Below, one piece after another: positions 3,040 to 22,016 of a DNA stretch of 24,000 bases. The notes beneath the pieces were generated by a model, which saw only the letters and a list, made by a program, of their open reading frames with translations, was not told the origin of the DNA and searched no databases. Position 1 is the first letter of the stretch. Every line of letters starts with the position of its first letter. A program made the position numbers and the translations under genes. The stretch lies in the NCBI GenBank assembly GCA_020860245.1, contig JAJBUQ010000008.1, forward strand, positions 335,101 to 359,100, written 5' to 3'. Source of the DNA: Rikenellaceae bacterium (lineage in GTDB: Bacteria; Bacteroidota; Bacteroidia; Bacteroidales; Rikenellaceae).

Positions 3040-3129
3040 ATGAAAAAGCTATTATTTTACCTTTTTATTGTAGTCTTGTCGGTTATATCAGTCGAGACGA
3101 TGCAGGTCAGCAATTTAAGTATAAAGTAA
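3040..3129 (+). other. 29-codon mini-ORF encoding only a signal-peptide-like sequence (possibly the detached 5' end of the next gene)
   Basis: ATG at 3040 gives MKKLLFYLFIVVLSVISVETMQVSNLSIK*. This is the last part of track ORF 2842..3129. The frame of the downstream ORF (3156..) is open back to 3030 and overlaps this ORF. Confidence 0.35.
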
Positions 3130-3155
3130 ATTACAAGAAGGCCTATAAGTCCAAA

Positions 3156-3671
3156 ATGAAATATTTCAATAAAGAAGGGTGGCAGATCGCCCAGTCCTCA
3201 CTTCCTATTGATGCTGCTCTTGCAAGGCATTACGACAGGATATACAATAATGACAATATGATAGAGTTGGTAGGGACTACGGTCAATGCCAAAACGCTTC
3301 GACTTGGTGCGGACGGTACCTCCGCAAATGCAATTTCGAATTACGCCAAAAATGTTTCTTCCAGTATTTTGGGAAAAATCGAAGCTAAAGGAGCTATTGA
3401 TCAGGTTACGGGAGCGCAAAGAGATTTTTTGCACAGCAATTATTCTATCGAGATAGAAAAATTGATAATAAGAGATATCGAGCCGAGTTTCACGGTGGTT
3501 AAAAAGAACAAAAAAAGTGGAACGATGGAGTATGAAACGTATTACGTTTTGGATGAAAATAAAGCCAAACTAACACGGGAAGAGGCGATGATTAATACGT
3601 TGAGAAATGCTAACGCTCCGACCGAACTGACGCAGGAAATAAGAGAAATTATCCGTCAAATGCCAGAATAA
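3156..3671 (+). CDS. hypothetical protein, tentatively LPP20-like; no signal peptide in the ORF as it stands
   Basis: 171-aa ORF, ATG start, TAA stop, 1 nt from the next gene. Its alternating alpha/beta-like pattern and operon partners suggest an envelope protein. The LPP20-like call comes from general sequence character only. Confidence 0.6.
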   Translation: MKYFNKEGWQIAQSSLPIDAALARHYDRIYNNDNMIELVGTTVNAKTLRLGADGTSANAISNYAKNVSSSILGKIEAKGAIDQVTGAQRDFLHSNYSIEIEKLIIRDIEPSFTVVKKNKKSGTMEYETYYVLDENKAKLTREEAMINTLRNANAPTELTQEIREIIRQMPE

Positions 3672-6008: not shown

Positions 6009-7214
6009 ATGATAAGAAAGATACTGATCCCGACATTATTTTTCCCAGCGGTCGTCTGTCTCGCGCAGATCGATCCGTTCGTGGACATAGAGGCCTTAAT
6101 TAATGGTAACAACCAAAGTTTCGACAGCTTCGTGGAAGAAAATATAGAAGCGATAGACCGAATGGACCGCGAATATGAAGCATACCTTAAGGCCGAACTG
6201 GAAGCATTCGAGAAGTTCCGCAAAGAGATCGAGGTGTGGTGGGGAGCAGATAATTTTGTGGAGAGCACTAAAAAAGATTAGGTAGAATACTCCGACGATA
6301 AAAAAAGCCGCAGCATCGTAGATTTCGAAGAAGGAACCGCCTCCATACAAATTCTTGTAGAAGACGAATCTCCGGAAGAGATCGTAGAAAAACTTCAGGA
6401 GAATTTGGCCGAGCTCCTTAACAGCAAAGGAACTACGAAAGATTACGATACCGAATACGAGAAACGCGAACCTTTGAGTAAAACGCCGATCCTTAAAGAT
6501 CAGGTGCTTGTGTCGGATAATAGGAAAATCGAGGAAGTCCCGATGGAGGTTGCCGTTAAAGATCTTACTCAAAACGGAGATCTTGAAATCACAGAGGTAG
6601 AGGGCGAGGACGGTAAAAATCGTAATATGGTCAATTTAAAGATTGATCTTGCTCCGGATAATATTAACACCCGCGCCGAACAGTTCCTCCCGCTTATCTG
6701 TAAATATGCTGAAAAATATAATCTGGATCCTGCGCTTGTGTGTGCGATCATCCATACGGAATCGTCCTTTAATCCAAAGGCAAAATCTATTGCCAATGCC
6801 CACGGATTGATGCAGATAGTCCCCACTTCCGCAGGAATCGATGCCTATGGACATATATACAAAAAAGAATGGACCCCTACTGCGCAATACCTGCTCGATC
6901 CGGAGAAAAATATAGAATTAGGAACGGTATATTTACATATGCTGATGACTTATCCCGGATATTTTACTAAAGTTGTGGAAGAAAATTCGAGAAGGCTCTG
7001 TGCCATCGCCGCTTATAATACCGGTGCGGGAAACGTAAGCAGGGCATTTACAGGTTCTACAAAGCTTTCAGAGGCGATACCGGTCATAAACCGGCATACT
7101 TATCATTCGCTGTTTAATTATATGTCCATAAATCTACCGTATGAAGAGACGCGTAAATACATTAACAACGTTACTGAACGCATGGCGAGCTACCGCTTGT
7201 GGATTAACTTATAA
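6009..7214 (+). pseudogene. mltC: MltC-like membrane-bound lytic murein transglycosylase (DUF3393 N-domain plus SLT domain) interrupted by an in-frame TAG at 6279-6281
   Basis: Track ORFs 6009..6281 and 6405..7214 are in the same frame, and 6282-6404 is open in that frame. The N-part has a signal peptide and ..[39 protein letters not shown], which parallels E. coli MltC ..[28 protein letters not shown]. The C-part has SLT motifs TESSFNP, GLMQIV and AAYNTGAGN. The TTG at 6405 is not a credible independent start. Confidence 0.8.
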
Positions 7215-7362
7215 ATTTTATTCAATAAAACTCAATACTTGTAGGCACGACGTGAATATCTTTTTTACTAATCGGTAGTGTTGAAGAAAAATAAAAAATC
7301 GCGCAATTCATATTGGCCGTTTTATTGTAATTTTATAAGGTTTAAAAGAAAAATTATTTCTA

Positions 7363-9510
7363 ATGCTGGAGCAATTGTCACAACCCCTGCCTCTGGAGAA
7401 TCCGATACTAATCTTCTCCCTGATACTCTTTATTATACTATTGGCTCCTATTATATTCCACATGTTCAAGATACCGGACCTCGTAGGGCTTATAATCGCA
7501 GGAGCCATCATAGGCCCCAACGGACTCGACATTCTCGAACGCGACAGCAGCATAGTGCTCTTCGGAACGGTGGGGCTGCTGTATCTTATGTTCGTTGCAG
7601 GGCTGGAAATAAATATGTCCGATTTCAAGAAAAACGGAAAAAAGGGACTTTTGTTCGGTTTTTTTACATTCAGCATACCTATGACGCTCGGAGGATTATC
7701 GGGTTATTATATTCTCGGATTCTCCATTCCTACTTCTATTCTTCTTGCAAGTATGTACGCGTCGCATACGCTTATAACATATCCGATAATAAGCAAATAC
7801 GGCATTACTAAAAACAGAGCGGTTACCGTAACTATTTCCGGAACAGTCATAACGGATATTCTCGCGCTTCTGGTTCTTGCCGTCATCGTGGGAATGGAGA
7901 CCGGTGAACTGTCTAATTTTTTCTGGATTAAACTCACCATCTCTACGATAGTGTTCGGTACGATAGTAATTTACGGATTCCCCTATCTGGTACGGTGGTT
8001 CTTTAAGAAGATAGACGACAGCGTAAGTAAATATATATTCGTCGTTGCTCTGGTATTCCTTGCAGCGTTTTTATCGGAACTTGCAGGATTAGAGGGCATC
8101 GTCGGAGCGTTCCTTGCAGGATTGTCGCTTAACAGGCTCATCCCAAACACCTCCGCCCTTCTTAACAGGATAGAGTTCGTCGGCAACACCCTGTTTATTC
8201 CGTTCTTCCTTATTGGTGTGGGTATGCTCATAGATTATAGGGTTTTTATAAGCGATTGGACTACAATATATGTCGCTGTAACAATGACCATAATTGCGAC
8301 CGTTTCGAAATATTCGGCTGCATGGCTTGCGCAACAGTCTTTTAGGTTCTCTAAGGACGAGAGACTTCTTATATTCGGATTAAGTAATTCACAGGCGGCG
8401 GCCACCCTTGCTGCGGTTCTGGTCGGTTATCAGGTGATAATAGGAATTACTCCGGAAGGAGAGCCTGTAAGACTTTTAAGCGACAGCATACTGAACGGAA
8501 CGATAATAATGATACTTTTTACTTGTATTATTGCTCCTTTTGCTACACAAAAAGCTTCTCAGAATATCGCCGTATCCGAGATAACGGAAGAAGAACTGGT
8601 AAATAACGAAGATATTCGGGATCGCGTTCTTGTGGCTATCCACAATCCGGAGAATATAGAAGAAATGATAAATCTTGCGGTTACGGTGAAATCGAAAAAG
8701 GCAAATGCCTCTATAACAGCTCTAAACGTGATACCGTCTGAAAATCATGACGCAGGGACCGAGAAAAAATCCAAAACACTTCTCGAAAAGGCTGCAAAAG
8801 TAGCTTCAGGCAGCGATAACCGCCTCGATACCATAATGAGATATGACGAAGATCCCGCAAACGGTATAAAAAATGCGGTAAAAGAACATAAAATCACCAA
8901 CGTTATTCTGGGAATACGCAAACATTCGGATATTATCCCTTCCTTCCTCGGAACGCTAACCGATAAGGTGCTCTCTAAATGTGCTACTACCACCATGATA
9001 TACCGTCCATATCAACCTTTATCGACGGTTAAACGCTACATGGTAGTGATCCCGCCGGACGCTGAGAAAGAAATAGGCTTCCCTTACTGGCTTATAAGGC
9101 TTTGGAATATAGGGAAGAATACCGGAAGTAAGATTCTTTTTTACGCCAATTCCACGATGATCAGTATCCTCAAAGAGGTTCAAAACAAGCAGTATATAGA
9201 TGCGGACTATATTGAATTCGGTGAATGGGAGGACTTCCTTATTATCTCGCGCGATATCAAAGACAACGATGCGCTTATAATAATTATGAGCCGCAGGACT
9301 TATCCTTCTTACACACGGAATATGAATCAGGTGCCCTCTTATTTAAGTAAATATTTCAATAAAAATAATTACATTCTGATATTCCCCGTTCAGTTGGGTA
9401 TTGGTGAACAGGATTCCGACGTTCTTAAAAGCATTCCGCATACCGATGCCAACGACGGATTCGAAGAACTCGCAAACGTGATGGCAGGACTATTCCGCAG
9501 GCTTAAATAA
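7363..9510 (+). CDS. cation:proton antiporter (CPA2/Kef-type Na_H_Exchanger domain) with C-terminal Usp-like cytoplasmic region
   Basis: 715 aa, about 12 predicted TM helices (ILIFSLILFIILLAPIIFHMFKIPDLVGLIIAGAIIGPNGL.. is a typical CPA2 N-terminus). A soluble C-terminal half follows (RVLVAIHNPENIEEMINLAVTV.. is Usp-like). ATG start, TAA stop. Confidence 0.85.
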   Translation: MLEQLSQPLPLENPILIFSLILFIILLAPIIFHMFKIPDLVGLIIAGAIIGPNGLDILERDSSIVLFGTVGLLYLMFVAGLEINMSDFKKNGKKGLLFGFFTFSIPMTLGGLSGYYILGFSIPTSILLASMYASHTLITYPIISKYGITKNRAVTVTISGTVITDILALLVLAVIVGMETGELSNFFWIKLTISTIVFGTIVIYGFPYLVRWFFKKIDDSVSKYIFVVALVFLAAFLSELAGLEGIVGAFLAGLSLNRLIPNTSALLNRIEFVGNTLFIPFFLIGVGMLIDYRVFISDWTTIYVAVTMTIIATVSKYSAAWLAQQSFRFSKDERLLIFGLSNSQAAATLAAVLVGYQVIIGITPEGEPVRLLSDSILNGTIIMILFTCIIAPFATQKASQNIAVSEITEEELVNNEDIRDRVLVAIHNPENIEEMINLAVTVKSKKANASITALNVIPSENHDAGTEKKSKTLLEKAAKVASGSDNRLDTIMRYDEDPANGIKNAVKEHKITNVILGIRKHSDIIPSFLGTLTDKVLSKCATTTMIYRPYQPLSTVKRYMVVIPPDAEKEIGFPYWLIRLWNIGKNTGSKILFYANSTMISILKEVQNKQYIDADYIEFGEWEDFLIISRDIKDNDALIIIMSRRTYPSYTRNMNQVPSYLSKYFNKNNYILIFPVQLGIGEQDSDVLKSIPHTDANDGFEELANVMAGLFRRLK

Positions 9511-9536
9511 GTATGGATAGATTTGGTTCCTGCATT

Positions 9537-10184
9537 CTACAAAATAATTTCGTGTTCCCTCTTCTCTGCGAACATTCGGTAAAATGCATCGGAGGTACGT
9601 TCCGGTGTTAAATTCTTACCTTCAGCCACCGGTTCGGTTATGGTAACGGTTCCTATAAATATTCCCGTCCCATGAAATTCATAGGCGAGATTAAGCGCGT
9701 AATTTCGTAGCGCTGCTTTACCCAGCGACATGGAGGCAGACACAGGAGACGGATTTAATGCCACTCCTCCGCCTGTAAATATTACTGCCCCGTATCCCTG
9801 TTTTTTATACATTTTTATTATTCTGTTAAAACAGGATACTCCTCCGCAGACATTAATTCCGAAGTCTGCATATATGTCTTCAACAGTCAACTCCGAAGGA
9901 CTACCTACTCGCCTGGCAACCGCATTGTATATCAAGAGTTCTATAACTTTTCCTCCTCTTTCGAGGCTGTCGAATACCGCGTCCACGGAATGCGGATCGG
10001 ATACGTCAATATGAATATATTCTGCGGTAATTCCTTTAAGAGACAGAGCGTCCGCCTGTTGTCTGAGAGTCTCTGGAGCGCGCCCTGCAAGTATTATATC
10101 GAATCCGTAACGTCCGAATTTTTCAGCTATATGGACACCGAAAGTTTTTCCAGGTCCTATTATGATTATCGAAGGATTTTTCAT
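9537..10184 (-). CDS. short-chain dehydrogenase/reductase-fold protein, atypical
   Basis: I prefer the ATG at 10184 (MKNPSIIIIGPGKTFGVHIAEKF..) over the track's TTG at 10202. It has a Rossmann GxGxxxG-like motif and an NAV motif. By manual alignment the YxxxK active-site region reads MSLGK, so the catalytic Tyr may be absent. Ends with TAG, 26 nt from the convergent antiporter gene. Confidence 0.75.
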   Translation of the reverse strand: MKNPSIIIIGPGKTFGVHIAEKFGRYGFDIILAGRAPETLRQQADALSLKGITAEYIHIDVSDPHSVDAVFDSLERGGKVIELLIYNAVARRVGSPSELTVEDIYADFGINVCGGVSCFNRIIKMYKKQGYGAVIFTGGGVALNPSPVSASMSLGKAALRNYALNLAYEFHGTGIFIGTVTITEPVAEGKNLTPERTSDAFYRMFAEKREHEIIL

Positions 10185-10220
10185 ATATTTAAAATATGGC
10201 AATTATAGTCATAATATTGT

Positions 10221-10252
10221 TAAAGATAAAAGAGGAAGATTAATCCTCCTCT
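10221..10252 (-). terminator. intrinsic terminator/attenuator hairpin in the SDR leader
   Basis: On the minus strand: AGAGGAGGA-UUAA-UCUUCCUCU, 9 bp including one G-U pair. That pair would be an A-C mismatch on the plus strand, which favours the minus orientation. It is followed by UUUAUCUUUA and ends 36 nt upstream of the ATG at 10184. Confidence 0.6.
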
Positions 10253-10286
10253 TTGGAGATTACTCTCCTATAATAGACAATTATAA

Positions 10287-10428
10287 AGGGGCTGTGGCTT
10301 CTTGGAAATACTAATACTAAAAGGCATGTACTCCAATCCGTTCCGAACAGGTTTGCGACGACCTCAAGGTAGACAGACAGAGTCCATGCCTTTTAAAGCA
10401 CAGACCCCTAACCTGACTTCCTACCTTG
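10287..10428 (-). ncRNA. candidate structured cis-regulatory RNA (riboswitch-like leader) or small RNA, family not recognised
   Basis: Nested helices found by eye. Outer helix: 10287-10296 with 10399-10409, 10 bp with one bulge. Inner helix: 10319-10332 with 10381-10394, 13 of 14 bp. An 8-bp pseudoknot-type pairing joins 10365-10372 (inside the inner loop) to 10421-10428. A promoter lies upstream and a terminator downstream on the minus strand. Confidence 0.45.
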
Positions 10429-10496
10429 TTATCCATTGTCGCAATTAATTCGGAAATGTAGGTGTTCCGGGTATCATAATATATTCTATAATGATG

Positions 10497-10529
10497 CAAA
10501 TATAGTCAATAACCGGGAAATTTAACAAA
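10497..10529 (-). promoter_or_regulatory. Bacteroidetes-type promoter (TTTG-N21-TATATTTG) driving the SDR leader
   Basis: Minus strand: TTTG (10529-10526), a 21-nt spacer, then TATATTTG (10504-10497). It sits just downstream of the terminator of the preceding minus-strand gene. Confidence 0.6.
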
Positions 10530-10560
10530 GTATTGTAATTATATTTAAAGGCCTGTGTAT

Positions 10561-10583
10561 AAAAAAAGCGGTCCGGGGACCGC
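10561..10583 (-). terminator. intrinsic terminator of the DUF937-OmpA gene
   Basis: Minus strand: GCGGTC-CCCG-GACCGC followed by TTTTTTT (10567-10561), 24 nt after the TAA stop at 10607-10609. Confidence 0.85.
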
Positions 10584-10606
10584 CTTTATCGATCGGTAAG
10601 ATCTTA

Positions 10607-11844
10607 TTATTTCATAAAACGGAATGCGATATCCCTGTCCTTTGCTCTGTCGTCGTCAGACGCGTTAGCACTGCGTGTGGCTTTCTCTTCGCCGAATCCT
10701 TCGGTAGTGATGCGGTTGGAAGCGACCCCTGCTTTTACAAGAAGAGATTTTATGTAATTAGCGCGTTGTTCCGATAATTCCATATTCGCGTCTTCACTGC
10801 CCACTTTATCTGCATAACCTGCGATCCTTATTTTAGCATTATCATAGCTCTTAAGGATTGCTGCGATATTGTTAATAGCGCGTTGTGATTCATCGTCACG
10901 GAATTCGTTTGCGCTGCCGAATACGAAATTGATATCTTCGAATTCAAACCATCTACTCTTCAGATCGTTATCCGATGCATTCTTGTAATCGTTAGAATTT
11001 AAATACCTTACCATTTTATCTATCTCGCCATTCTTGTAAACGACGATGCGCTGTCCGTCCGATAAAGTAAGGTGAGTCGTATCGCGGTCTCTGTCACCGA
11101 GCCTATCCGCAGCGCGGGAGGTCTCGTTCCTTACAGTATCGACTACCTGAGAAGTACGTGTCTCATATCTGTCCTCAATTACCGGACGCTCGGTCTTACG
11201 GCATGATCTCCACCAGAATATGAGAAGGAGTAAAAGGAGAATTATGATAAGCCACGTGATCCAGCTGTTGTTCTTTTTCTTGTTGTCCGTTGTTTTAACA
11301 TTATCGTACTTCTTATTGTCCGCGATATTATTCAGACCGAAAGAATTTTTAAGCCCTGACGGCATATCGGATAGTATGCTGCTTCTCTCTTTGTTGAGCT
11401 CTCCCATAAGATCCGCCATGCTCCACTTCTCTTTTACGAGCTTATTTCCTAAAAATCCTGCGACAACAGGGCCTAACATAGATACGAGCCTGTTCGTAGC
11501 TACTTTTGAAACTCCTGGATCCGACGATACGGCAGAGGTAAAATCTGCTGCCTTGTTTCCGAGAAGATTCTCAAGGAACTGATCGCCGATGTTCTGCTGT
11601 TCCTTGTGGGGATTATCGCAGAAAATACCGTTCATATTCGAGAGAATGTTCTGATTGCCTGCCTCCTCGAGAATGTTTTTCATCTGCATCGTGTTGCCTT
11701 TTTCATAAAAACACCGAGAAGTCCCGGGATTATGGATTTTACGGCCGATGACACTTTAGATTCGTTTTCGTCTACCAGTGAAGCTGCTTTGGAAACCATT
11801 TCACGGTTTACAGTAGCTTTAAGTGAATCGTAAATTTTCGACAT
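10607..11844 (-). pseudogene. DUF937 / TM / OmpA_C-like domain envelope protein with a frameshift at an A5G run (11699-11703)
   Basis: The ATG at 11844 gives MSKIYDSLKATVNREMVSKAASLVDENESKVSSAVKSIIPGLLGVFMKK, then ATRCR*. This is a DUF937-type N-terminus. The track ORF 10607..11689 continues in the -1 frame. One extra A would give ..GVFMKKGNTMQMKNILEEAGN... The C-terminus has the OmpA-like region ..IAGYADKVGSEDANMELSEQRANYIKSLLVKAGV.. Confidence 0.75.
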
Positions 11845-12023
11845 AATGATCTTGTATTAAATTTTAAATTAAGTTCTTTCTGTAACCATCTATGCAAATA
11901 CCATACAAATAATTTTTCCGCTAATTTATCCGACTGATCTAAAAATTAACTTAACGTGTGTTTAATAAGAAAAAAAGCCTTATATTTATATGATAGTTAA
12001 AAGAGAATTAAAAAGAACACTTT

Positions 12024-15000
12024 ATGTCCACCAACACGAAGATTAAAAAAGCTATTGTACTCGGTTCCGGAGCCTTAAAAATAGGGCAGGCCGGAGATTC
12101 GATTATTCCGGATCGCAGGCGCTTAAGGCTTTGAAGGAGGAGGGTATTTATACCATACTCATTAACCCTAACATTGCAACTATTCAGACATCCGAAGGTA
12201 TTGCGGACAAGGTATACTTCCTTCCCGTAACACCATATTTTGTAGAGGAAATAATAAAAAAAGAGAAACCCGAAGGTATTCTGCTTGCATTCGGAGGGCA
12301 GACCGCACTAAACTGCGGTACCGAGATGTATCTTAGCGGAACTCTACGGAAGTACGGAGTCGAGGTTATGGGTACCTCTGTGGAAGCAATAATGACCACT
12401 GAGGACAGAGATCTTTTCGTGAAAAAACTGGATGAGATCGCAGCCAAAACTCCGATAAGCCAGGCTGTAGAGACGATGGAAGACGCTATTGCCGCAGCAA
12501 ACAAGATAGGATTCCCGATAATGGTCCGCTCCGCTTATGCACTCGGAGGGCTCGGTAGCGGTATCTGTAACGACATGGAAGAGTTTAAGACTCTGTGTGA
12601 AAGTTCTTTTGCATATTCAAAACAGATACTCGTCGAAGAATCCCTCAAAGGCTGGAAGGAGATCGAATTCGAAGTTATCAGGGACAAGAACGACCATTGC
12701 TTTACAGTTGCCAGCATGGAGAACTTCGATCCACTCGGGATCCATACAGGAGAGAGTATCGTGGTCGCGCCTACATGTTCGCTCGACGATAAAGAATTGG
12801 CACTATTACAGGAACTATCGCGCAATATAATCCGCCATATAGGAATTGTAGGGGAATGTAATATTCAATACGCATTTAACTCCGAGACTGACGATTACAG
12901 GGTTATAGAAGTGAATGCGCGTCTGAGCCGTTCTTCCGCTCTCGCGTCCAAAGCGACAGGTTATCCGCTCGCGTTCGTCGCTGCTAAACTCGCACTGGGC
13001 TACACTCTCGATCAGATAGGCGAGATGGATACGCCGAATTCAGCATACAAGGCTCCGGAGCTGGATTACCTTATATGTAAAATCCCGCGTTGGGACCTCA
13101 GCAAATTCGCAGGAGTGTCGCGGCTTATCGGATCGAGCATGAAGTCCGTAGGAGAGATAATGTCCATAGGGAAGTCCTTCGAAGAGATCATACAGAAGGG
13201 GCTCCGAATGATAGGGCGGGGGATGCACGGTTTTGTTGGCAACCACGAACTCGAATTCGACGATATCGAAAAGGAATTGTCATGCCCGACAGATATGAGA
13301 GTTTTCGCGATTGCCAAAGCATTCGGGGAGGGTTATACGATCGAAAGAATACACGAACGTACCAAGATAGACCCATGGTTCCTTGGTAAGTTGAAAAACA
13401 TATACGACTATTCTCTAAAACTGGGAACTTACGAAAATATTGAAAAGATACCTGCCGATGTACTCATGGAGGCTAAAAGACTCGGATTCTCCGACTTCCA
13501 GATAGCGAGGTTCGTAGAAAATCCTGACGGTAACGTAGAAAAGGAGTCGTTACGCGTTCGCTCCGTAAGGAAAAAAGCCGGAGTTCTTCCGACCGTTAAG
13601 AGAATAAATACAGTGGCCTCCGATAACCCCGATCTCACGAACTACTTCTATATGACTTACGATGGTGGTGAGAACCAGGTTCCGTACTTCCAGAATGAAA
13701 AATCCGTTGTCGTTCTGGGCTCGGGAGCTTACCGGATCGGAAGCTCGGTGGAGTTCGACTGGTGTTCGGTAAATGCTGTTCAGACAGCACGTAAGTTGGG
13801 ATACAAGTCGATAATGATCAATTATAATCCTGAGACCGTATCTACCGATTACGATATGTGCGACAGACTCTACTTCGACGAACTCTCGTTCGAACGCGTA
13901 CTCGATGTTCTCGATCTTGAGAAACCTAAAGGGGTGATAGTATCGGTAGGCGGACAGATTCCGAATAATCTTGCCATAAGACTGTACCGACAGGATATTC
14001 CTATTCTCGGAACATCTCCGGTGTCTATCGACAGGGCGGAGAACAGACATAAATTCTCCAGCATGCTCGATCAACTCGGTATCGACCAACCTGCATGGAA
14101 GGAGCTTACCGATATGAACGATATATACGGATTTGTGGACAAAGTCGGTTATCCGGTACTCGTAAGACCGTCGTACGTGCTATCCGGAGCTGCAATGAAC
14201 GTGTGCTACAATAAGGAAGAACTCGAAACCTTCCTGAAACTCGCGGCAAACGTGTCGAAAGAATTCCCTGTGGTAGTATCCCAGTTCCTTCAGAATGCAA
14301 AGGAAGTGGAATTCGATGCCGTAGCCATGAATGGAGAGATAATCGAATATGCGATCTCGGAACACATTGAATTCGCGGGAGTTCATTCCGGCGATGCCAC
14401 CCTGGTATTCCCTGCACAGAAAATTTATAACGAGACTGCAAGGCGCATCAAAAAAATCAGCCGCAAGATCGCTCAGGAATTGAATATCAGCGGACCGTTC
14501 AACATTCAGTTTCTGGCCAAGAATAACGACGTCAAGGTCATCGAATGCAATCTCCGCGCTTCGAGAAGCTTCCCGTTCGTATCCAAAGTACTCAAACGAA
14601 ATTTTATAGAGACTGCGACGAGAATAATGTTGGACGCCCCTGTCGAGAAACCGGACGCATCCGCATACGATGTGGATTGGATCGGCGTCAAGGCATCACA
14701 GTTCTCGTTCTCCCGTCTGCACAACGCTGATCCCGTCCTGAGCGTGGATATGTCCTCGACAGGAGAGGTCGGATGTATAGGAGACGATTTTAGCGAAGCC
14801 CTCCTGACTTCGATGCTATCGGTTGGTTACAATATTCCGGAGAAGAGCGTTATGGTCTCTTCCGGAGACCCTAAATCCAAGGTTGATCTTCTTGAACCCT
14901 GCAAGATGCTGATGGAGAGCGGTTATAAAATATATGCGACCGCAGGAACACAAAAATTCCTCGACGATAACGGTGTCGAAGCCATGGTGGTCGGATAGCC

Positions 15001-15244
15001 GGACGAGGAGACCGAACATAACATTATGGATATGATATCTAACCATGAATTCGATCTTATAGTGAATATTCCGAAGAACCACACCCGCCGCGAGCTTACC
15101 AACGGTTATAAGATACGAAGGGGGGCTATCGACCACAATATTCCGCTTATTACCAACGCACGCCTTGCAAGCGCGTTTATCGAATCGTTCTGTGATATTA
15201 AAATGATTGATATTCCGATCAAGAGCTGGCAGGAATACATTTAA
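12024..15244 (+). pseudogene. carB: carbamoyl-phosphate synthase large subunit, disrupted twice (1-nt deletion near 12097; in-frame TAG at 14996-14998)
   Basis: The ATG at 12024 gives MSTNTKIKKAIVLGSGALKIGQAG, then shifts. The conserved continuation EFDYSGSQALKALKEEG.. is in the frame of track ORF 12131..14998 (ggagattc where ggagaattc is expected). Track ORF 15026..15244 is in that same frame after ..EAMVVG*PDEETEHNIMDMISNHEFDLIVNIPKN... The repaired length of about 1073 aa is typical of CarB. Confidence 0.9.
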
Positions 15245-15266
15245 CCGATATTCAATATTATTAAGT

Positions 15267-15306
15267 ACCCACACCGGAAATTTACTTGTGTGGGTTCTTT
15301 TTTATT
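15267..15306 (+). terminator. intrinsic terminator after carB
   Basis: 8-bp stem acccacac/gtgtgggt (15267-15274 / 15288-15295) with a 13-nt loop, followed by tcttttttatt. Confidence 0.8.
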
Positions 15307-15389
15307 ATATAAAATGTAAATATTATACTTTTTACAATAAACTGTATGCTGGCGTTGTTTATATTTAACGATATTATTCGAATCAAGTA

Positions 15390-16184
15390 ATGGAAAAATT
15401 TCAAATAATTAAACCCTCTGCGATTCTTGCTCCCTACATCAAAAATTATTGGATTTTAAAAACGGAAGGAATTTTACCCCGGAATATACGTACATTCCCC
15501 ACGGGTAATGTCTCACTTATGTTCCATCGCGGTGCGCGGATTTTTTCACATTCCGGCAGCAGGCTTCAGCCCCGTACGTACGTATGCGGACAGGAGAAAA
15601 CTTTTAACGAACTGATATATGCGGGTTCGGTGGATATGATTGCTGTTGTCTTCAATCCAGCAGGGGCTAAATTATTTTTAAAAGTACCTCTAAACGAAAT
15701 AAGCGGAATGTGTGTCGATATTCACGATCTGGATAACTCCGGTTTGGTTGAACTTCAAACTTTCGTAGAGGATGCGGTATCGGATAAAGAGTGTATTGCC
15801 TCGATAGAATGTTTCTTGATCGAACGGATCAAAGACATGGAGAATCATAATGTGAATCGTATTAATTGCGCAATAGAATTAATCGTTAAAAATGAAACGG
15901 ATATCGATTCCGTTGCGCATACCGTTTGTCTGAGCCCTAAACAATTCAATAGGATTTTTACCGGATTCGTAGGAACCAGACCGAAGGAATTCCAAAGGAT
16001 TATACGGTTTCAGCGAGCGTTGTTTCTGTTGCAAACCCGGCCTTATATTTCACTTACACAGATTGCATTCGATTGCGGTTATTACGATCAGGTGCACTTC
16101 ATAAAGGAGTTCAGACAGTTCTCCGGTTATACTCCTCTTCAATATACATCGCTCTGTCTCCCTTATTCCGATTATTTTTCATAA
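15390..16184 (+). CDS. AraC family transcriptional regulator
   Basis: C-terminal double HTH region ..LSPKQFNRIFTGFVGTRPKEFQRIIRFQRALFLL..ISLTQIAFDCGYYDQVHFIKEFRQFSGYTPLQY is typical of AraC/XylS. 264 aa. Confidence 0.85.
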   Translation: MEKFQIIKPSAILAPYIKNYWILKTEGILPRNIRTFPTGNVSLMFHRGARIFSHSGSRLQPRTYVCGQEKTFNELIYAGSVDMIAVVFNPAGAKLFLKVPLNEISGMCVDIHDLDNSGLVELQTFVEDAVSDKECIASIECFLIERIKDMENHNVNRINCAIELIVKNETDIDSVAHTVCLSPKQFNRIFTGFVGTRPKEFQRIIRFQRALFLLQTRPYISLTQIAFDCGYYDQVHFIKEFRQFSGYTPLQYTSLCLPYSDYFS

Positions 16185-16223
16185 TCTGATATCCGAATAT
16201 TTAGGAATGTCGTTTTTTTACAA

Positions 16224-16252
16224 TTTCCGCGTATCCGCTGCCTATAATTTTG
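16224..16252 (+). promoter_or_regulatory. candidate promoter for the VOC gene (TTTC-N17-TAATTTTG)
   Basis: TAATTTTG at 16245-16252 matches TAnnTTTG, 24 nt upstream of the ATG at 16276. The -33 element is imperfect (TTTC at 16224-16227, short spacer). Confidence 0.4.
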
Positions 16253-16275
16253 TACGGTAATTAAAACGTATTGAA

Positions 16276-16644
16276 ATGGAAAAATTGTTGGCATTCTTTG
16301 AGATTCCTGCAGGAGATTTTGAAAGAGCAGTGGATTTTTATGAAACGGTATTAGAACTTAAATTATCCGTAACGGAACGCGAGGCGGAAAAAATGGCCTT
16401 CTTCCCTGAAGAGAACGGGAAATATCCCGGAGCTATTTCTTTTACCAATGGATTTGAACCCTCAAAAGACGGAGTACTGATAAGTTTGCAGGTTAGAAGT
16501 ATGGAAGAGACGATTGCCCGAATCGAGACTTCCGGGGGGAGGATCGTAAAAAGTAAAACCAAAATCGAAGCAGAAGGCATGGGATTTTTTGCTCTATTCA
16601 GCGATTCTGAAGGTAACACGGTAGGACTGTACTCGGATAATTAA
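16276..16644 (+). CDS. VOC (glyoxalase/bleomycin-resistance/dioxygenase fold) family protein
   Basis: 122 aa. FEIPAGDFERAVDFYETVLELKL .. GGRIV..K..I.. GMGFFALFSDSEGNTVGLYS is the typical VOC beta-alpha-beta-beta-beta module pattern. Confidence 0.75.
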   Translation: MEKLLAFFEIPAGDFERAVDFYETVLELKLSVTEREAEKMAFFPEENGKYPGAISFTNGFEPSKDGVLISLQVRSMEETIARIETSGGRIVKSKTKIEAEGMGFFALFSDSEGNTVGLYSDN

Positions 16645-16660
16645 TTTGGGGATTCTCGTT

Positions 16661-16702
16661 AAAAAATAAATGGAGTAGTATATACTACTCCATTTATTTT
16701 TA
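16661..16702. terminator. bidirectional terminator between the convergent VOC and MBL genes
   Basis: Long hairpin aaataaatggagtagt-atat-actactccatttattt with a GC-containing core at 16671-16692. It has an A-run on one side and a T-run on the other. Confidence 0.8.
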
Positions 16703-16710
16703 TTCTTAGT

Positions 16711-17559
16711 TTATTCTGCCGGTACGAATTCGTATCCTCCATTACCGTTATCTTTAATATATCCTATACCCGGATAAGCTATGTGCATTCCTGCAACAGG
16801 AATATTATTATCTGCAACGTACTTCAGGATTGCGAACCTCGATTCCCTCGCCGCGTCCGGATCGACATCGTATGTCACCGATATCTGAGGGTAAGGCATT
16901 TGAACCGCCATGGCATGAGTAAGGTCGCCCCAAATCAGAAGCTTCTCCCCTTTGGATTCTATTAAATATACGGTATGTCCCGGAGTGTGTCCGTAAGCCT
17001 CGATGGCAGAAACTCCTTTAGTTATGGTCTTCGGGTTATCAGCGTTGCCCGGAGTAAAAGTACTCATGGATTCATCATAAAGATTCAGCACCTTATCTGC
17101 GGTTCTGTTTTTGACTTCCTTCCAATAATCCACCTCTTTTTCCGCTATGAAAACTTTGGCATTAGGGAATGCCGTCTCTCCTTTATTTTCCATACCTCCG
17201 ATATGATCTCCGTGCATGTGGGTAAGAATTATTCTGTCGATGTCATCAGCGGATTTACCTAATGATTCGAGATTACTGAATAATTTTCTTCCGTATCCGG
17301 TATCTGCGAGTATTGTCAGACAGCCGGTTTCAATGAGGAACGCGTTCACGGCATTCGGAAATGTTCCGTCCGGAATAGTCTCGTTCAATATCTCCTCGCT
17401 CGGATCGATAAGTATAGATTTATTCCCCTCGCTCTGCCCTTCGGAGAGAAGAGTTACCGTATAATCGCCAACTTTGTAAGAGAAGGTGTCCGCTGTCTGG
17501 GCTGCTGCCGTAAATGATAATACGGCAGATAATGTCAATAAAATATTGCTCTTTTTCAT
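16711..17559 (-). CDS. secreted MBL-fold metallo-hydrolase
   Basis: Signal peptide MKKSNILLTLSAVLSFTAAAQ. HxHxDH motif (THMHGDHIGG). Downstream His/Asp ligand positions (YGHTPGH, WGDLTH, GMHIAYPG). Confidence 0.85.
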   Translation of the reverse strand: MKKSNILLTLSAVLSFTAAAQTADTFSYKVGDYTVTLLSEGQSEGNKSILIDPSEEILNETIPDGTFPNAVNAFLIETGCLTILADTGYGRKLFSNLESLGKSADDIDRIILTHMHGDHIGGMENKGETAFPNAKVFIAEKEVDYWKEVKNRTADKVLNLYDESMSTFTPGNADNPKTITKGVSAIEAYGHTPGHTVYLIESKGEKLLIWGDLTHAMAVQMPYPQISVTYDVDPDAARESRFAILKYVADNNIPVAGMHIAYPGIGYIKDNGNGGYEFVPAE

Positions 17560-17658
17560 TTTTTCTTATCTTTTTCTAATGCGCAAGGTAGTAATTTTTT
17601 ACAAATCCATAAATTTTCAGGGTAAATTTCATAATTGTGATTATTTTTTAGATATCCG

Positions 17659-18951
17659 CTACATCTCTAAATTCTCTTCCTGCGGTTTTATTTTCAGAAT
17701 CCTGATAAGGAGCGGAAGTCCGAGGCCTTGAATAATAAGCATAATTATCACTACCATTACCGTCAGAAATATAATGCTGCTTCTCTCCGGGAAATTACTA
17801 CCATCGGTGAATGTAACCGGAAGGGCTATCGCCGTTGCTATCGAGATAATTCCGCGCATTCCGGATCATCCGATCACAAGCGCATTCTTCCAGTCGATGG
17901 TCATCATGTGGGAAGTATCTCCACTATTTTTATGGTGCTTTGCCTTAAGATTATGAATCTTATCCAGACGGTACTTCCTTTCGAAAATTACGAGTATCCT
18001 TATGGCCAACGCAATAACAAATATGGCGAATGAACTAAGAATCAGAGGAACGAACGAATGCTCCGGAATTTCTTGCAGAGCTTGAGGAAATTCGAGTCCT
18101 ATAAGGATGAAGATTAATCCGTTGAGAACATAAATTATTACCGACCATACCGATTTGGCCTGCACGATGGTAACTCCCGAAAATAATCTGTCATTGTGCA
18201 TCTTGCGGGATATTGCGAGTCCGGAGATAACCACGGCGAGAACTCCGGATAATTCGAGTGATTCCGCTATCTGGCAAGCGACAAACGGCAGCAATATGTT
18301 AAGGCTTACAGTCGCTGTGCTGGAGAACTTCACTTTTTCGAGCAGTTTTAAAAACAGATAAGCTAATATTAATCCTATGAGGGCGCCTCCGCATAAAATT
18401 ATTACGAATTCCAGCGCAGCTTCCCATAAAACGAACGCGCCTCCGGCAACTACGGCGAGAGCTATGCGGTATGCGGTAAGGGCGGACGCGTCGTTTACCA
18501 GACTCTCCCCTTCGAGAATAGTTTTGGTACTGTGGGGAAGATTGACATTTTTCATTATTGCAGATGCCGCGACTGCGTCGGGAGGGGATAGAATAGCTCC
18601 GATCACAAACGCGACCGGCCAGGAGATATCCGGTATCACATATCTCGCTACCAGTGCTATCGCTATTATCGTTATAAACACCATTGCAACTGCAAGCATC
18701 GATATAGTCTTAATGTGGGCTTTAAAGTCCGGGAACGAGATATTTATCGAAGCATCGTACAGCAGAGGGGGAAGAAAAATCAGGAACACGATATTCGGAT
18801 CTATCGGTATATAAACAAGGTGTGGAATAAATCCCAGAAGAATTCCTGCAACCATAAGAAGTATGGGATAAGGCAGCATAAGACGCGGAGCGACAGCGGT
18901 CAGTGCTATCGCAATGGCAAGGAGAAAAAGTATGAGATGGTAATATTCCAT
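17659..18951 (-). pseudogene. nhaP: NhaP/CPA1-type Na+/H+ antiporter interrupted by an in-frame TGA at 17866-17868
   Basis: The credible start is the ATG at 18951 (MEYYHLILFLLAIAIALTAV..). The track's TTG at 19068 lies across the upstream terminator. The gene has the ESLVNDASALT motif. Track ORFs 17866..19068 and 17659..17859 are in frame: ..DWKNALVIG*SGMRGIISIATAIALP. Homologs read ..GW.GMRG.. at this position. Confidence 0.8.
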
Positions 18952-19020
18952 AATTTGCGTTGTGACAGAGACATTGCGAACATTATGCCGGAAATGGTTA
19001 CCTTCATTCGCGGTAACCTG

Positions 19021-19051
19021 AAAATAAAAGGTCCGGCATTTATGCCGGACC
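19021..19051 (-). terminator. intrinsic terminator of the BACON-lipoprotein operon
   Basis: Minus strand: GGTCCGGCA-UAAA-UGCCGGACC followed by UUUUAUUUU, 27 nt after the TAG stop at 19078-19080. Confidence 0.85.
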
Positions 19052-19077
19052 CCCCGTTTAATTAACAATAGGCTAAC

Positions 19078-20394
19078 CTATTGATAGCTGACGGTAAACG
19101 TAGTGGTCGAACCGTATCCGCTGTTTTGAGTCAACTCGATTACACAACCGTCACCGTTGAATTTATAACTGTAAGTACACGTGGAGTTAGAGCCTCCGGA
19201 AGTTTCAGTTGTGGAAGTTACAAGATTGACACTTCTGTTTCCGTATAAGCCCAAGATATTGAAGAACTGATACTCGTCAAGGAAGTGGTATGTCTCGTCG
19301 TTATAAGCGAACCAATTGAAATCTATATTCATGATCTCGCTGTTCACATAATCTGAATTATATTGTGCTGTCGTGCTTAGGTAGTCATCCAGTTTAACAC
19401 CGGTTAGATTGCCGTTAGACCATGTGCAGCTGTAAAAGAAAGAGTAATTGTCGTCGTCGTCCGGATCAATCCATCTGTAAGATACAGATTTAATATTGTC
19501 TTTGTCGTAAGATGCAATCCACTCACTCTGCCATGTGGAAGATTCTCCCTCTTCCACCTCATATTCCACCGCCTTACCTGAAATTATATATCCGTCGCTG
19601 TTGAGGTTAACGGTAGCAGTAACTTTGTAATAATTATAGGAAATCTCTAAATCAGCTCTCGTCGCAGGGTTGATGCCCCTGAATAATCGTCCTTTAGGAG
19701 GGTGGTTTTGTAAGGATTTTACAGCTGCCTGAGATTGACCAGCCGCATAGGGGATATTATCCGTATCCCAGTAAGATATAAACTCCATCGTAACGGTACT
19801 GCTGCCGTAAGTGAATTTAACCGAACCAGTTTCAGTTTCATACCCGTTTTCAACAAATCTTATCTCGGTTACCCTGCCGACACCGTCGTAAGAGAACCCG
19901 TATTCACCGGTATAGCTCTCATCAGGATAATCGGTCGAAACGTACTTCTCTGTGATTGACTTAACGTACTTCCTGACAGGCACGGTACCGTCTTCTTTGG
20001 TGCCTGATTGGGTTACGTTGATCTCCACTGTCTGGGAACCGCTTCGAATAGTTATCGAAGCTGCTCGCGCGTTGCCTGTGGTATTGAGCGCGAGGGTAAT
20101 TGTAAGGGTGTATGTCCCTGCCGATCCGCTGTACTGGCTTAGGGTGATCCAGTCCGGATCAGATGGCGCTATCGCTTTTGCAGCAGATTTTTCCACTACT
20201 GTAGCGGTCCAATCTGCTGTGGCTGTGAACTTAACGGAGCCTTGAGCTTCGTCAGCATATAAATCCTGAGTTTTCTCGGAACTATCGGGGATGGTTACGC
20301 TTCCTCCTCCGTTGTCGTTGTTGTCGTCGTCGCTGCTGCTGCATGCACCGAATAATAATACGGCAGCTGTAAGCATTAATAAGTAATGTTTCAT
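19078..20394 (-). CDS. surface lipoprotein with N-terminal BACON domain and beta-rich YD/DUF4595-like C-terminal region
   Basis: Lipobox LLFGAC followed by SSSDDDNNDNGGG. VKFTATADWTATVV..DWITLSQYSGSAGTYTLTITLALNTTGNARAASITIRSGSQTVEINVTQ is a BACON signature. The C-terminal part is Y/D/G-rich (FSYDGVGRVTEI..). 31 nt downstream of the beta-barrel gene. Confidence 0.8.
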   Translation of the reverse strand: MKHYLLMLTAAVLLFGACSSSDDDNNDNGGGSVTIPDSSEKTQDLYADEAQGSVKFTATADWTATVVEKSAAKAIAPSDPDWITLSQYSGSAGTYTLTITLALNTTGNARAASITIRSGSQTVEINVTQSGTKEDGTVPVRKYVKSITEKYVSTDYPDESYTGEYGFSYDGVGRVTEIRFVENGYETETGSVKFTYGSSTVTMEFISYWDTDNIPYAAGQSQAAVKSLQNHPPKGRLFRGINPATRADLEISYNYYKVTATVNLNSDGYIISGKAVEYEVEEGESSTWQSEWIASYDKDNIKSVSYRWIDPDDDDNYSFFYSCTWSNGNLTGVKLDDYLSTTAQYNSDYVNSEIMNIDFNWFAYNDETYHFLDEYQFFNILGLYGNRSVNLVTSTTETSGGSNSTCTYSYKFNGDGCVIELTQNSGYGSTTTFTVSYQ

Positions 20395-20425
20395 TTTTTT
20401 ATGGATTAAGGTAAATACTCCGTTA

Positions 20426-21085
20426 TCAGAATCTGAGTGTCAAAAATATGCGTGTGGAAGTAACTTTGAATTTATCGGGAGTGCTGCGTAGTTCGTCGAA
20501 TTCGATGCGTCCGTATTTGGGTTCTCCCCAGCGCGATTCTACGCCGAGCCCTATTCCACCGAACGATACTGCTCCCCCGAATATGAAAAACGATGCGTAG
20601 GAGCCGTAAAATTCATCTGTAAAATCGTCGTAAAGGGCTGCGTAAGTAGGTGAAAACCGGAAATAAGCCTGAACATTGAGTCTGCTTATAGGATTCACCG
20701 TTACCGAAGGACTTACCTGCACGCCTATCTCCGCCTGATGTAATTTAACTTCTTCTTGAGGCTGATATTCGTACTGATCCATATAATACGGCATACTTGT
20801 CTTAGCGGAATAATGAGCATAATTCACATCGATAAACGCAGCGTCTACGGCAAAGCGGACCATTTCGAGCAGCGGTGTTTTGTGAACGTAATAAGTTCTT
20901 CCGGTAGTTATCGCAGCGCCGTATTTACTGTTGATCTTTTTATCGATATAAGTGGATTTCAGATCGAATTTCTGCGTAGTAAACGCAATGTTTGTGAATT
21001 TTTGTCGGAATACACGTTCTTCCTGTGCGGTGAGCCGCATAATGGTAATAATCGTGAAAGTGGTTAGTAGCAAGTATCGCCTCAT
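20426..21085 (-). CDS. small outer-membrane beta-barrel protein
   Basis: Signal peptide MRRYLLLTTFTIITIMRLTAQ. Alternating hydrophobic beta-strand pattern with Y/G-rich strands. C-terminal ..IFLTLRF with a terminal Phe. TGA stop followed immediately by TAA. Confidence 0.7.
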   Translation of the reverse strand: MRRYLLLTTFTIITIMRLTAQEERVFRQKFTNIAFTTQKFDLKSTYIDKKINSKYGAAITTGRTYYVHKTPLLEMVRFAVDAAFIDVNYAHYSAKTSMPYYMDQYEYQPQEEVKLHQAEIGVQVSPSVTVNPISRLNVQAYFRFSPTYAALYDDFTDEFYGSYASFFIFGGAVSFGGIGLGVESRWGEPKYGRIEFDELRSTPDKFKVTSTRIFLTLRF

Positions 21086-21353
21086 AACGGTAATGATTCT
21101 GCCATAGACTCCTGTACGGCGTTCTACACAAAAAGAAAGTGTGGAGTCTTTAGTTTATCCGTACGGAGGCTCTGACAAAGCCTGACACCAAATAAACAAT
21201 ACCCCACACCTGCCGTATGTATTCACAAATACATTACCATGCAAGTGACGAGTGTTATTGTTATCCCCGGTGTCTTTGAAATTGTCAGATTTCCGTACAG
21301 AGATAAAAGCTAAAACACTTTCATCTTAAATATGTCTGTCCCTCAGGACTTCA

Positions 21354-21361
21354 CAAATATA
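21354..21361 (-). promoter_or_regulatory. candidate -7 box (TATATTTG) for the beta-barrel/BACON operon
   Basis: The reverse complement of caaatata at 21354-21361 is TATATTTG. No TTTG at the -33 spacing. It implies a leader of about 260 nt before the ATG at 21085. Confidence 0.4.
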
Positions 21362-21420
21362 GAAAATATTTTAGTAATAAAATTCACGGGGTATTGATAT
21401 TCAAAATTAAATACAAATAA

Positions 21421-21855
21421 TTACAATGCGCAATTATTATTCAACAATGTCAGAGCTTCGCCGAGCTTTTTCCTGAATTCTACTGTTATGTGCTTATATT
21501 TATGAGATCCGGCATGTTCCATGCCTTCCAGTATACCAAGCGCATCCTCGAGGATATTTGCTGCCTTGCGCAGAGTGTATGTTATGTCATCGTTGCCGTT
21601 CTTAGCCTGATCGAGCAGGTATGCAGCATAACGACCTTGTTTAATGGCTCTTAGATCCTTTGCGCGGGTCTTACCTGCGTCTTCAAGGAATAAATTTCCC
21701 ACTTCTTCTACGGTCGTACCGTAGATTTCTACACGGTCTGCAGAGGCATAGGCCGCCCTGCCATAGAACTTTTTTTCTTCGTTACGAGGATTTTTTTTCC
21801 CATGTCCAATTAATTTGGTTAAACAATAAGCATAAACCGCCCGGCGGACTTTCAC
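21421..21855 (-). CDS. hypothetical protein (predicted helical), start uncertain
   Basis: 144-codon ORF whose only start options are GTG 21855 or later non-ATG codons. A8 and A7 runs lie near the 5' end. An out-of-frame ATG at 21879 opens a 32-codon ORF that ends inside it. No family recognised. Confidence 0.45.
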   Translation of the reverse strand: MKVRRAVYAYCLTKLIGHGKKNPRNEEKKFYGRAAYASADRVEIYGTTVEEVGNLFLEDAGKTRAKDLRAIKQGRYAAYLLDQAKNGNDDITYTLRKAANILEDALGILEGMEHAGSHKYKHITVEFRKKLGEALTLLNNNCAL

Positions 21856-21917
21856 CGTTGCGACTTAGCTCAATTGACATGTTTAAAAAAATCACTCTTT
21901 ATGATTTTAAATTTTAC

Positions 21918-21965
21918 AAAAAAAATACTGTCCGGTCCGCCCCCTTTGAGGCGCGTAAAGACAGT
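21918..21965 (-). terminator. terminator-like hairpin plus U8 immediately downstream of a promoter (attenuator or about 60-nt RNA)
   Basis: Minus strand: ACUGUC..CGCC..GGCG..GACAGU (outer 6 bp 21927-21932/21960-21965, inner 4-5 GC pairs), then A UUUUUUUU (21925-21918). Confidence 0.45.
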
Positions 21966-21984
21966 TATATTTTATTTATTCGGA

Positions 21985-22016
21985 CAAATATAAAATAACA
22001 AAAACATATTTCCAAA
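21985..22016 (-). promoter_or_regulatory. Bacteroidetes-type promoter (TTTG-N20-TATATTTG)
   Basis: Minus strand: TTTG (22016-22013), a 20-nt spacer, then TATATTTG (21992-21985). Located upstream of the orphan ORF. Confidence 0.55.

Follow-up and report, generated by a model that had tools for sequence, protein, structure and literature searches.

Single-base lesions in six genes of a Rikenellaceae-like gut bacterium are probably very recent pseudogenisation

The DNA analysed here is a 24-kb stretch (the window, 24,000 nucleotides) of the 363,289-bp contig JAJBUQ010000008.1 from the metagenome-assembled genome (MAG) 'Rikenellaceae bacterium', locus tag prefix LIO79_, and every result given for the window applies to these 24 kb of that MAG. 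Exact protein look-ups return its proteins as MCC8088407-422, under LIO79_ locus tags. The window holds about 22 protein genes and a tRNA-Asp, at a GC content of ~42% (36-49% over 1-kb windows). The genomes closest to it in carB, with 85-88% of amino acids identical, belong to uncultured Bacteroidales, Dysgonomonas and Tidjanibacter; in other window genes, Alistipes and Rikenellaceae MAGs are closest. No relevant paper was found for the run, assembly, IMG or locus-tag identifiers, and a herbivorous fish gut as the sampled habitat is a mere guess. Six of the ~22 genes are broken by seven single-base lesions: three G>A changes that turn a tryptophan codon, TGG, into a stop, three single-base deletions and one lost start codon. 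A preliminary description of this DNA had reported five lesions in four genes; all five are present where it placed them, and the tally has been extended by two. The six genes are as follows.

548-1165, + strand: pilin-like membrane protein gene, ~205 aa in relatives; the homologous start codon is ATC at 548-550
3040-3671, + strand: secreted-protein gene; signal-peptide open reading frame (ORF) at 3040-3129 (frame 1) and mature part at 3156-3671 (frame 3, open from 3030)
6009-7214, + strand: mltC-like lytic transglycosylase gene, 401 codons; an in-frame TAG at 6279-6281 replaces a conserved TGG (Trp91)
10607-11844, - strand: DUF937-OmpA gene, 412 codons; A6 shortened to A5 at 11699-11703, splitting the gene into ORFs of 54 aa and 360 aa
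12024-15244, + strand: carB, carbamoyl-phosphate synthase large subunit, 1073 codons; two lesions, a deletion in codon 25 and a TGG>TAG change
17659-18951, - strand: nhaP-type Na+/H+ antiporter gene, 430 codons; TGG>TGA at 17866-17868 (Trp362), leaving ORFs of 361 aa and 66 aa

The nearest sister species is represented by the 234-kb JGI contig Ga0192240_10003 (L084), which is syntenic with window positions 7399-22002; its carB is 92% identical to that of the window in amino acids and 76.6% in nucleotides. All three stops fall on conserved tryptophans. Of 80 genome loci, 79 encode Trp where the window carB has its TAG (14996-14998); L084 reads GGA TGG CCG at the site, and the 76 residues past the stop are 94.7% identical to those of L084. 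In nhaP, on the minus strand, the TGA stands where all 16 homologs have Trp (GWSGMRG) and L084 has TGG, and the C-terminus of the gene coincides with the homolog ends. The preliminary description had placed both stops at Trp positions and read them as G->A changes; since the L084 codons there are TGG, the changes are TGG>TAG in carB and TGG>TGA in nhaP. It had also listed the mltC-like TAG, without assigning it to a Trp codon. That stop too occupies a Trp position (KDWVEYS), conserved in all 14 homologs, and the sequence beyond it is colinear with them to the C-terminus.

Two of the three deletions can be placed exactly. Codon 25 of carB (12096-12098) reads GGA GA- TTC against GGA GAA TTC in L084, which confirms the previously described 1-nt deletion (GAA>GA). 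In the DUF937-OmpA gene, a DNA alignment sets ATG AAA AA- GGC against ATG AAA AAA GGC in the intact 411-aa L084 ortholog; the frameshift noticed earlier in this A run is a 1-nt deletion. The third, a -1 shift in the secreted-protein gene, lies between ~3085 and 3128, its exact site not located. A detached signal peptide at 3040 had been listed only as a weaker candidate, and it is real: most of the 144 homologs of the 171-aa ORF are 200-220 aa long and match it from their residue ~40, and those inspected carry an N-terminal signal peptide on the ~40 residues that precede the match. Another weaker candidate, an orphan ORF with A8 and A7 runs (21421-21855), is an intact conserved gene, 75% identical to its L084 ortholog.

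The remaining lesion removes a start codon. Where the window reads ...AATAACA ATC AAA AAA GCA..., a relative (L164) reads ...AATAACG ATG AAA AAA GTA.... Homologs of the pilin-like protein are 204-210 aa long, and the NCBI annotation starts it at TTG 581 (LIO79_03945, 194 aa). A membrane protein without an ATG had been suspected here, correctly as to the loss itself; the former start codon is ATC 548-550 and not, as had been proposed, ATA 542-544. The DUF3822 gene (1195-1881) may be a second case: L164 has an in-frame ATG, taken by one gene caller as the start, at the position where the window has AAG (1237-1239), so that in the window the gene must begin at GTG 1195. This case is ambiguous because that upstream GTG exists and start positions vary among relatives.

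Lesions aside, the four genes of the preliminary description are each colinear with their homologs through the last residue, and homologs or orthologs run uninterrupted across the lesions wherever they are available: L084 is intact at every window lesion site that it covers (carB, DUF937-OmpA and nhaP), and L164 at the start codon. Across coding sequence, the number of lesions roughly follows gene length. Their density lies well above the background, as had been claimed. In a survey of ~160 carB loci from public genomes and metagenomes, the gene is interrupted in essentially only the window and its sister L084, and marginally in L013 (JAVBLA010000016.1, Bacteroidales MAG EPI_MAG_00011), whose carB has a TAG at 8201-8203, 12 codons short of the usual C-terminus.

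Assembly or consensus error was among the explanations offered at first, and at the level of the assembler it is refuted. Logan contigs are an independent de Bruijn assembly of the reads of run SRR15219669, the only run in whose Logan assemblies proteins of the window species were found. Three of them match the window over 2516-24000 (21.5 kb) at 100% identity, lesions and split gene calls included, and a fourth (L169) gives the same gene calls over ~572-2499; the outer limits of these contigs, relative to the window, are 572 and 24157. Over 2516-24000 the contigs break only at hairpins or a tRNA. One contig end coincides with a perfect 30-bp palindrome at 16672-16701, between convergent glyoxalase and MBL genes, and another with a hairpin at 10226-10250, upstream of the SDR gene; L169 starts at 572, near the lost start codon, for no visible reason. 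Homopolymer miscalling is unlikely, and we discarded it, because every A7 or A8 (or T7 or T8) run inside genes is in frame and the locatable frameshifts lie in an A6 run and an AA pair, the reverse of the pattern such miscalling would leave. Stretches of 12-20 kb from two control MAGs, LIO85 (L170; GCA_020859685.1; SRR15219646, 49 and 53, of the window's own series) and LUF90 (L164; GCA_021201795.1; SRR152213xx, an adjacent series), have housekeeping gene calls that are uninterrupted and of normal length. Given the Logan identity, the in-frame runs and these clean controls, the assembler and pipeline are not the cause.

The sister species carries lesions of its own: a TAG at an invariant Ser of carB, a TAG in a BACON-domain gene and frameshifts in nhaP. 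The Logan assembly of SRR7496047 returns the 20-kb L084 region exactly except for one G6/G7 tract, with the lesions in all three genes reproduced. That tract difference removes one of the two nhaP shifts of L084; with it discounted, three of ~19 genes at the sister locus are broken. For a 99.86% identical strain from another project (SRR15221330) there is a contig of 5.7 kb, which spans BACON and nhaP and stops short of carB; the BACON TAG is present in it, as is the remaining frameshift in nhaP. Because a strain from a different project shares them, at least these two lesions are inherited genomic features of the sister species. A high lesion load would thus be a trait of the clade and not an accident of one assembly, since the nearest sister species has independent lesions of its own.

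Sister-species sequences also differ in homopolymer length. At the first poly-G tract of nhaP (L175 position 9415), among five assemblies of one strain or of nearly identical strains, L174 and L176 have G7 and L175, L177 and L178 have G6, which switches the nhaP frame; a second G7 tract lies near the remaining frameshift. This poly-G variation is either sequencing instability of the tract or slipped-strand variation. The ortholog of window gene 20426-21085 has a T run immediately behind its start codon that is T9 in one and T8 in the other of two sister strains (L176 position 285, L175 position 6798), which alters the called start (208 against 219 aa).

An artefact upstream of assembly has to be weighed against these data. 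The lesions would then exist in the library, or in the reads of a single run, and not in the living population; they could be errors of a low-input library, introduced by amplification or DNA damage, or come from a majority consensus drawn from a heterogeneous or dying subpopulation. The lesions are indeed all single-nucleotide changes, and the strongly conserved genes that carry them show no other decay. Cytosine deamination classically produces G>A artefacts, and the unstable G6/G7 tract shows that homopolymer calls can vary between sister-species assemblies. The window species is confined to one run, and no intact allele or second copy is on record for comparison: nhaP, mltC-like, DUF937-OmpA and pilin-like proteins repaired in silico have no exact match among 15 billion proteins. 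Such an artefact is nevertheless unlikely. Two different assemblers yield an identical 21.5 kb, none of the long A/T runs within genes breaks the frame, and gene calls are uninterrupted in other MAGs from that Sequence Read Archive series. The sister-species lesions recur in independent samples, two of them in a diverged strain, and the lineage-specific missense changes in carB show no GC>AT enrichment.

If the lesions are in the genome, the stops might still be decoded, and suppression, readthrough or editing had been raised as an outside possibility. The genetic code, as read from the gene ends, appears to be standard. Among 20 genes in the window, 16 end in TAA, three in TAG (the SDR, nhaP and BACON genes) and one in TGA (p219), and the L084 orthologs of the BACON gene and p219 end at the same residue; it is because TAG and TGA still end genes where orthologs end that we take the code to be standard. 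(The TAA share seems rather high for a region of ~42% GC, in a small sample.) Over ~7000 codons there are 59 TGG, against one in-frame TGA and two in-frame TAG. A reassigned stop codon was rejected, given that TAG and TGA serve at true gene ends, that in-frame stops are rare and that the sister carB TAG sits at a Ser codon. The window resembles genomes that read UGA as Trp (table 4, Mycoplasma, Hodgkinia) in having one in-frame TGA at a conserved Trp; it differs from them in that TGA ends a gene at its orthologous end, that 59 TGG stand against that one TGA, and that TAG is involved as well.

Several specific rescue mechanisms were considered and rejected. TadA-type A-to-I editing is said, in work by Bar-Yaacov et al. 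from 2017, to act on the A of a TACG context in a tRNA-Arg-like loop. The contexts of the three stops (GATTAGGTA, GGATAGCCG and GGATGATCC) contain no TACG. Selenocysteine at the nhaP TGA was dismissed because homologs have Trp there, rather than Cys or Sec, in 16 of 16 cases, and Rfam returns no match to a selenocysteine insertion sequence. Programmed frameshifting or slippage does not fit the two located shift sites (the third, in the gene at 3040, being the one without an exact position), as neither the A5 at 11699-11703 nor GA|TTC at 12096-12100 is a slippery heptamer or a homopolymer of at least nine. No suppressor tRNA lies within the window, where the only tRNA is the tRNA-Asp.

The broader case for rescue at the level of decoding supposes that UAG or UGA is suppressed, read through as Trp or edited, that the frameshifts are bypassed, and that the genes stay functional, which would account for the strong conservation they still show. 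All three stops lie at conserved tryptophans with conserved sequence downstream, seen in the carB tail and in nhaP up to its last residue, and two long-diverged lineages both tolerate lesions. Rescue would, however, have to spare the TAG and TGA gene ends, including the two that are shared with L084, and the bulk of Trp codons is still TGG. It would require two different suppressor tRNAs, would leave the sister TAG at an invariant Ser to be explained, and finds neither a TACG context at any stop, nor slippery sequence at the A5 and GA-TTC sites, nor a tRNA other than tRNA-Asp in the window. Suppression would moreover be no help for three frameshifts or a lost start codon. We consider rescue of this kind very improbable.

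The composition of the lesions raises another alternative, namely that they are real and owe their origin to a specific mutational process rather than to relaxed selection alone. Candidates would be mismatch-repair deficiency, which gives transitions and 1-nt indels, or coding-strand G>A through deamination of cytosine on the template strand. For the codons present in the window, we listed every single-base change that creates a stop. With only three stops, the probability that all three nonsense changes hit TGG is 0.0001 under uniform mutation, 0.003 when transitions are favoured fourfold and 0.057 when GC>AT transitions are the only changes allowed. Coding-strand G>A would yield Trp stops exclusively. 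Each of the three frameshifts, in addition, is a -1 deletion, and one of these lies in an A6 run. Two sister-species strains differ at eight sites, by four transitions, two transversions and two homopolymer length changes, which weakly hints at a repair-deficient spectrum.

Other observations speak against such a footprint. The Trp-only pattern rests on an n of three, the loss of the pilin-like start is a G>C transversion, and the sister carB TAG requires a C>A transversion. Window-specific missense changes in carB have a mixed spectrum (3 of 9 GC>AT), and read on the plus strand the three stops are G>A, G>A and C>T, with no consistency as to replication strand. A specific mutator or deaminase as the source of the lesions is quite improbable on this evidence, less so than decoding rescue. 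The mixed spectrum of lineage-specific carB substitutions also led us to reject a region-wide GC>AT burst or deaminase damage. At conserved columns the window carB deviates 8 times, against a median of 2; other intact homologs reach 8-15, so it is no clear outlier. A shared methylation or recognition motif at the stops was likewise set aside, as inspection found no consistent position within GGCC, GGWCC or CCGG sites. The carB and nhaP stops do share TCGGAT..CCGGA flanks, which largely mirror the similar peptides VVGW and VIGW and are absent from mltC.

Two known mutational regimes invite comparison. Like mismatch-repair-deficient hypermutators, the window combines transitions with 1-nt indels in short homopolymers and has nonsense changes only via GC>AT; unlike them, the clade has at least two transversions, and the trait occurs in two species at saturated synonymous divergence. 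The likeness to APOBEC3G-type G>A hypermutation of retroviruses is one of signature only: TAG and TGA from TGG are the sole stops that coding-strand G>A can produce, and the window shows three of three. Here the target is a bacterial chromosome, G>A is not generally in excess among the carB missense changes, and nothing points to a known deaminase. The Trp-only stops offer a testable hint of a strand-specific G>A process.

The age of the lesions can be judged from divergence. Between the window and L084, synonymous sites are saturated (proportion of synonymous differences, pS, 0.66-0.84; 0.49 in the short p144 gene). In the broken genes the nonsynonymous divergence, dN, is 0.047 for carB and 0.14 for DUF937-OmpA, against pS of 0.73-0.76. 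Because dN in broken genes is far below the saturated synonymous divergence, dS, all lesions appear, on sequence comparison, to be very young relative to the window/L084 split; with dS saturated, the ratio indicates only this youth relative to the split. Every pseudogene in the window has just one or two fresh lesions. Old, eroded pseudogenes and a GC drop are absent from the 24 kb, and Pfam scans of the window detect no transposases.

We regard it as probable that the lesions are genuine, very recent pseudogenisation in a clade that purges disabling mutations poorly. In the population sampled, that of a Rikenellaceae-like bacterium of the gut, loss-of-function mutations would have become fixed or at least predominant, and disabling mutations would currently not be purged. 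A small or clonal population, a relaxed need for the functions concerned or a raised mutation rate could each bring this about; in short, we infer weak selection or a mutator as the cause, and the broken genes are presumably non-functional. Of the initial proposal of ongoing decay in a host-restricted or auxotrophic lineage, decay is the part that is best supported, as the reads contain the lesions, the sister species has independent lesions of its own, and at least two of the latter are inherited. Its other part, host restriction or auxotrophy, finds no backing in the window, which lacks eroded pseudogenes, insertion sequence (IS) elements and a drop in GC.

Several observations count against recent gene decay. 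Every lesion looks new, with no secondary decay, eroded remnants or IS elements in 24 kb, and two lineages at saturated synonymous divergence both carry fresh lesions only, which is how errors would look as well. As the window species occurs in a single run, its lesions have no independent biological replicate. The window carB has evolved no faster than the L084 carB (14 versus 29 lineage-specific residues), three of three stops at TGG are improbable under ordinary mutation spectra, and the basis of the argument is 24 kb of one genome. That two long-separated lineages show only fresh lesions means that either a steady state or some rescue is needed. Small clonal populations that continuously carry a deleterious load could form such a steady state, as could a mutation rate raised throughout the clade. 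As for rescue, leaky decoding, by suppressor tRNAs or near-cognate readthrough, might let the clade tolerate stops and perhaps frameshifts and still make some full-length protein. We give this only a very slim chance; if true, it would explain both why the two lineages have fresh lesions in genes still under strong purifying selection and why the window stops are restricted to Trp.

Recent gene decay has precedents. Young, strain-specific bacterial pseudogenes have reportedly been treated by Kuo and Ochman in 2010, in 'The extinction dynamics of bacterial pseudogenes'. The window lesions resemble such pseudogenes in that single lesions inactivate well-conserved genes, differ between close relatives and are apparently short-lived. 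What differs from young pseudogenes of free-living genomes is the density, which at 6 of ~22 genes is roughly tenfold higher, and the inclusion of central metabolism (carB). Mass pseudogenisation is known from recently host-restricted symbionts such as Sodalis glossinidius, the Sitophilus primary endosymbiont, Mycobacterium leprae and, within Bacteroidales, 'Candidatus Azobacteroides pseudotrichonymphae'. The window shares with these the many broken housekeeping genes, lesions regardless of function, a deletion bias and recurrence in relatives; unlike them, it has no IS expansion, eroded remnants, low coding density or GC drop, and its lesions are single and fresh.

If the density holds genome-wide, a gut Bacteroidales lineage and its sister would have been caught at the onset of gene erosion, a stage rarely observed beyond insect endosymbionts and a few pathogens. 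They could then serve as a natural system in which to study what triggers erosion, be it population bottlenecks, failing DNA repair or cross-feeding through which genes like carB become dispensable. There is also a practical side. The present annotation splits several of the broken genes into 'hypothetical proteins' (LIO79_03980, _04005 and _04030), which makes the gene count too high and would lead a metabolic reconstruction from this MAG astray.

Apart from the lesions, the window and L084 differ by clean gene blocks without remnants (window 15245-16710 versus L084 13201-13251 and 14100-16287). The window alone has genes for an AraC regulator and a glyoxalase, and the sister species alone has those for a cytidylyltransferase, a zeta-toxin-like kinase and a histidine phosphatase. 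Intergenic spacers are equal in size in the two. The tRNA-Asp (2469-2546) lies just downstream of rsmD, where L164 (12200-14648) and L170 (12515-13441) have integrase genes or fragments; this suggests that the region downstream of rsmD is an integration hot spot, empty in the window. Lastly, an imperfect hairpin of ~120 nt is found at 10325-10455, between the SDR gene (9537-10202) and DUF937-OmpA, and at ~8250-8400 in L084. It has no Rfam match, is conserved between the window and the sister species within an otherwise poorly conserved spacer, and folds in RNAalifold with 44 pairs, three of them compensatory; it could be an undescribed small RNA or 5'-untranslated-region element.

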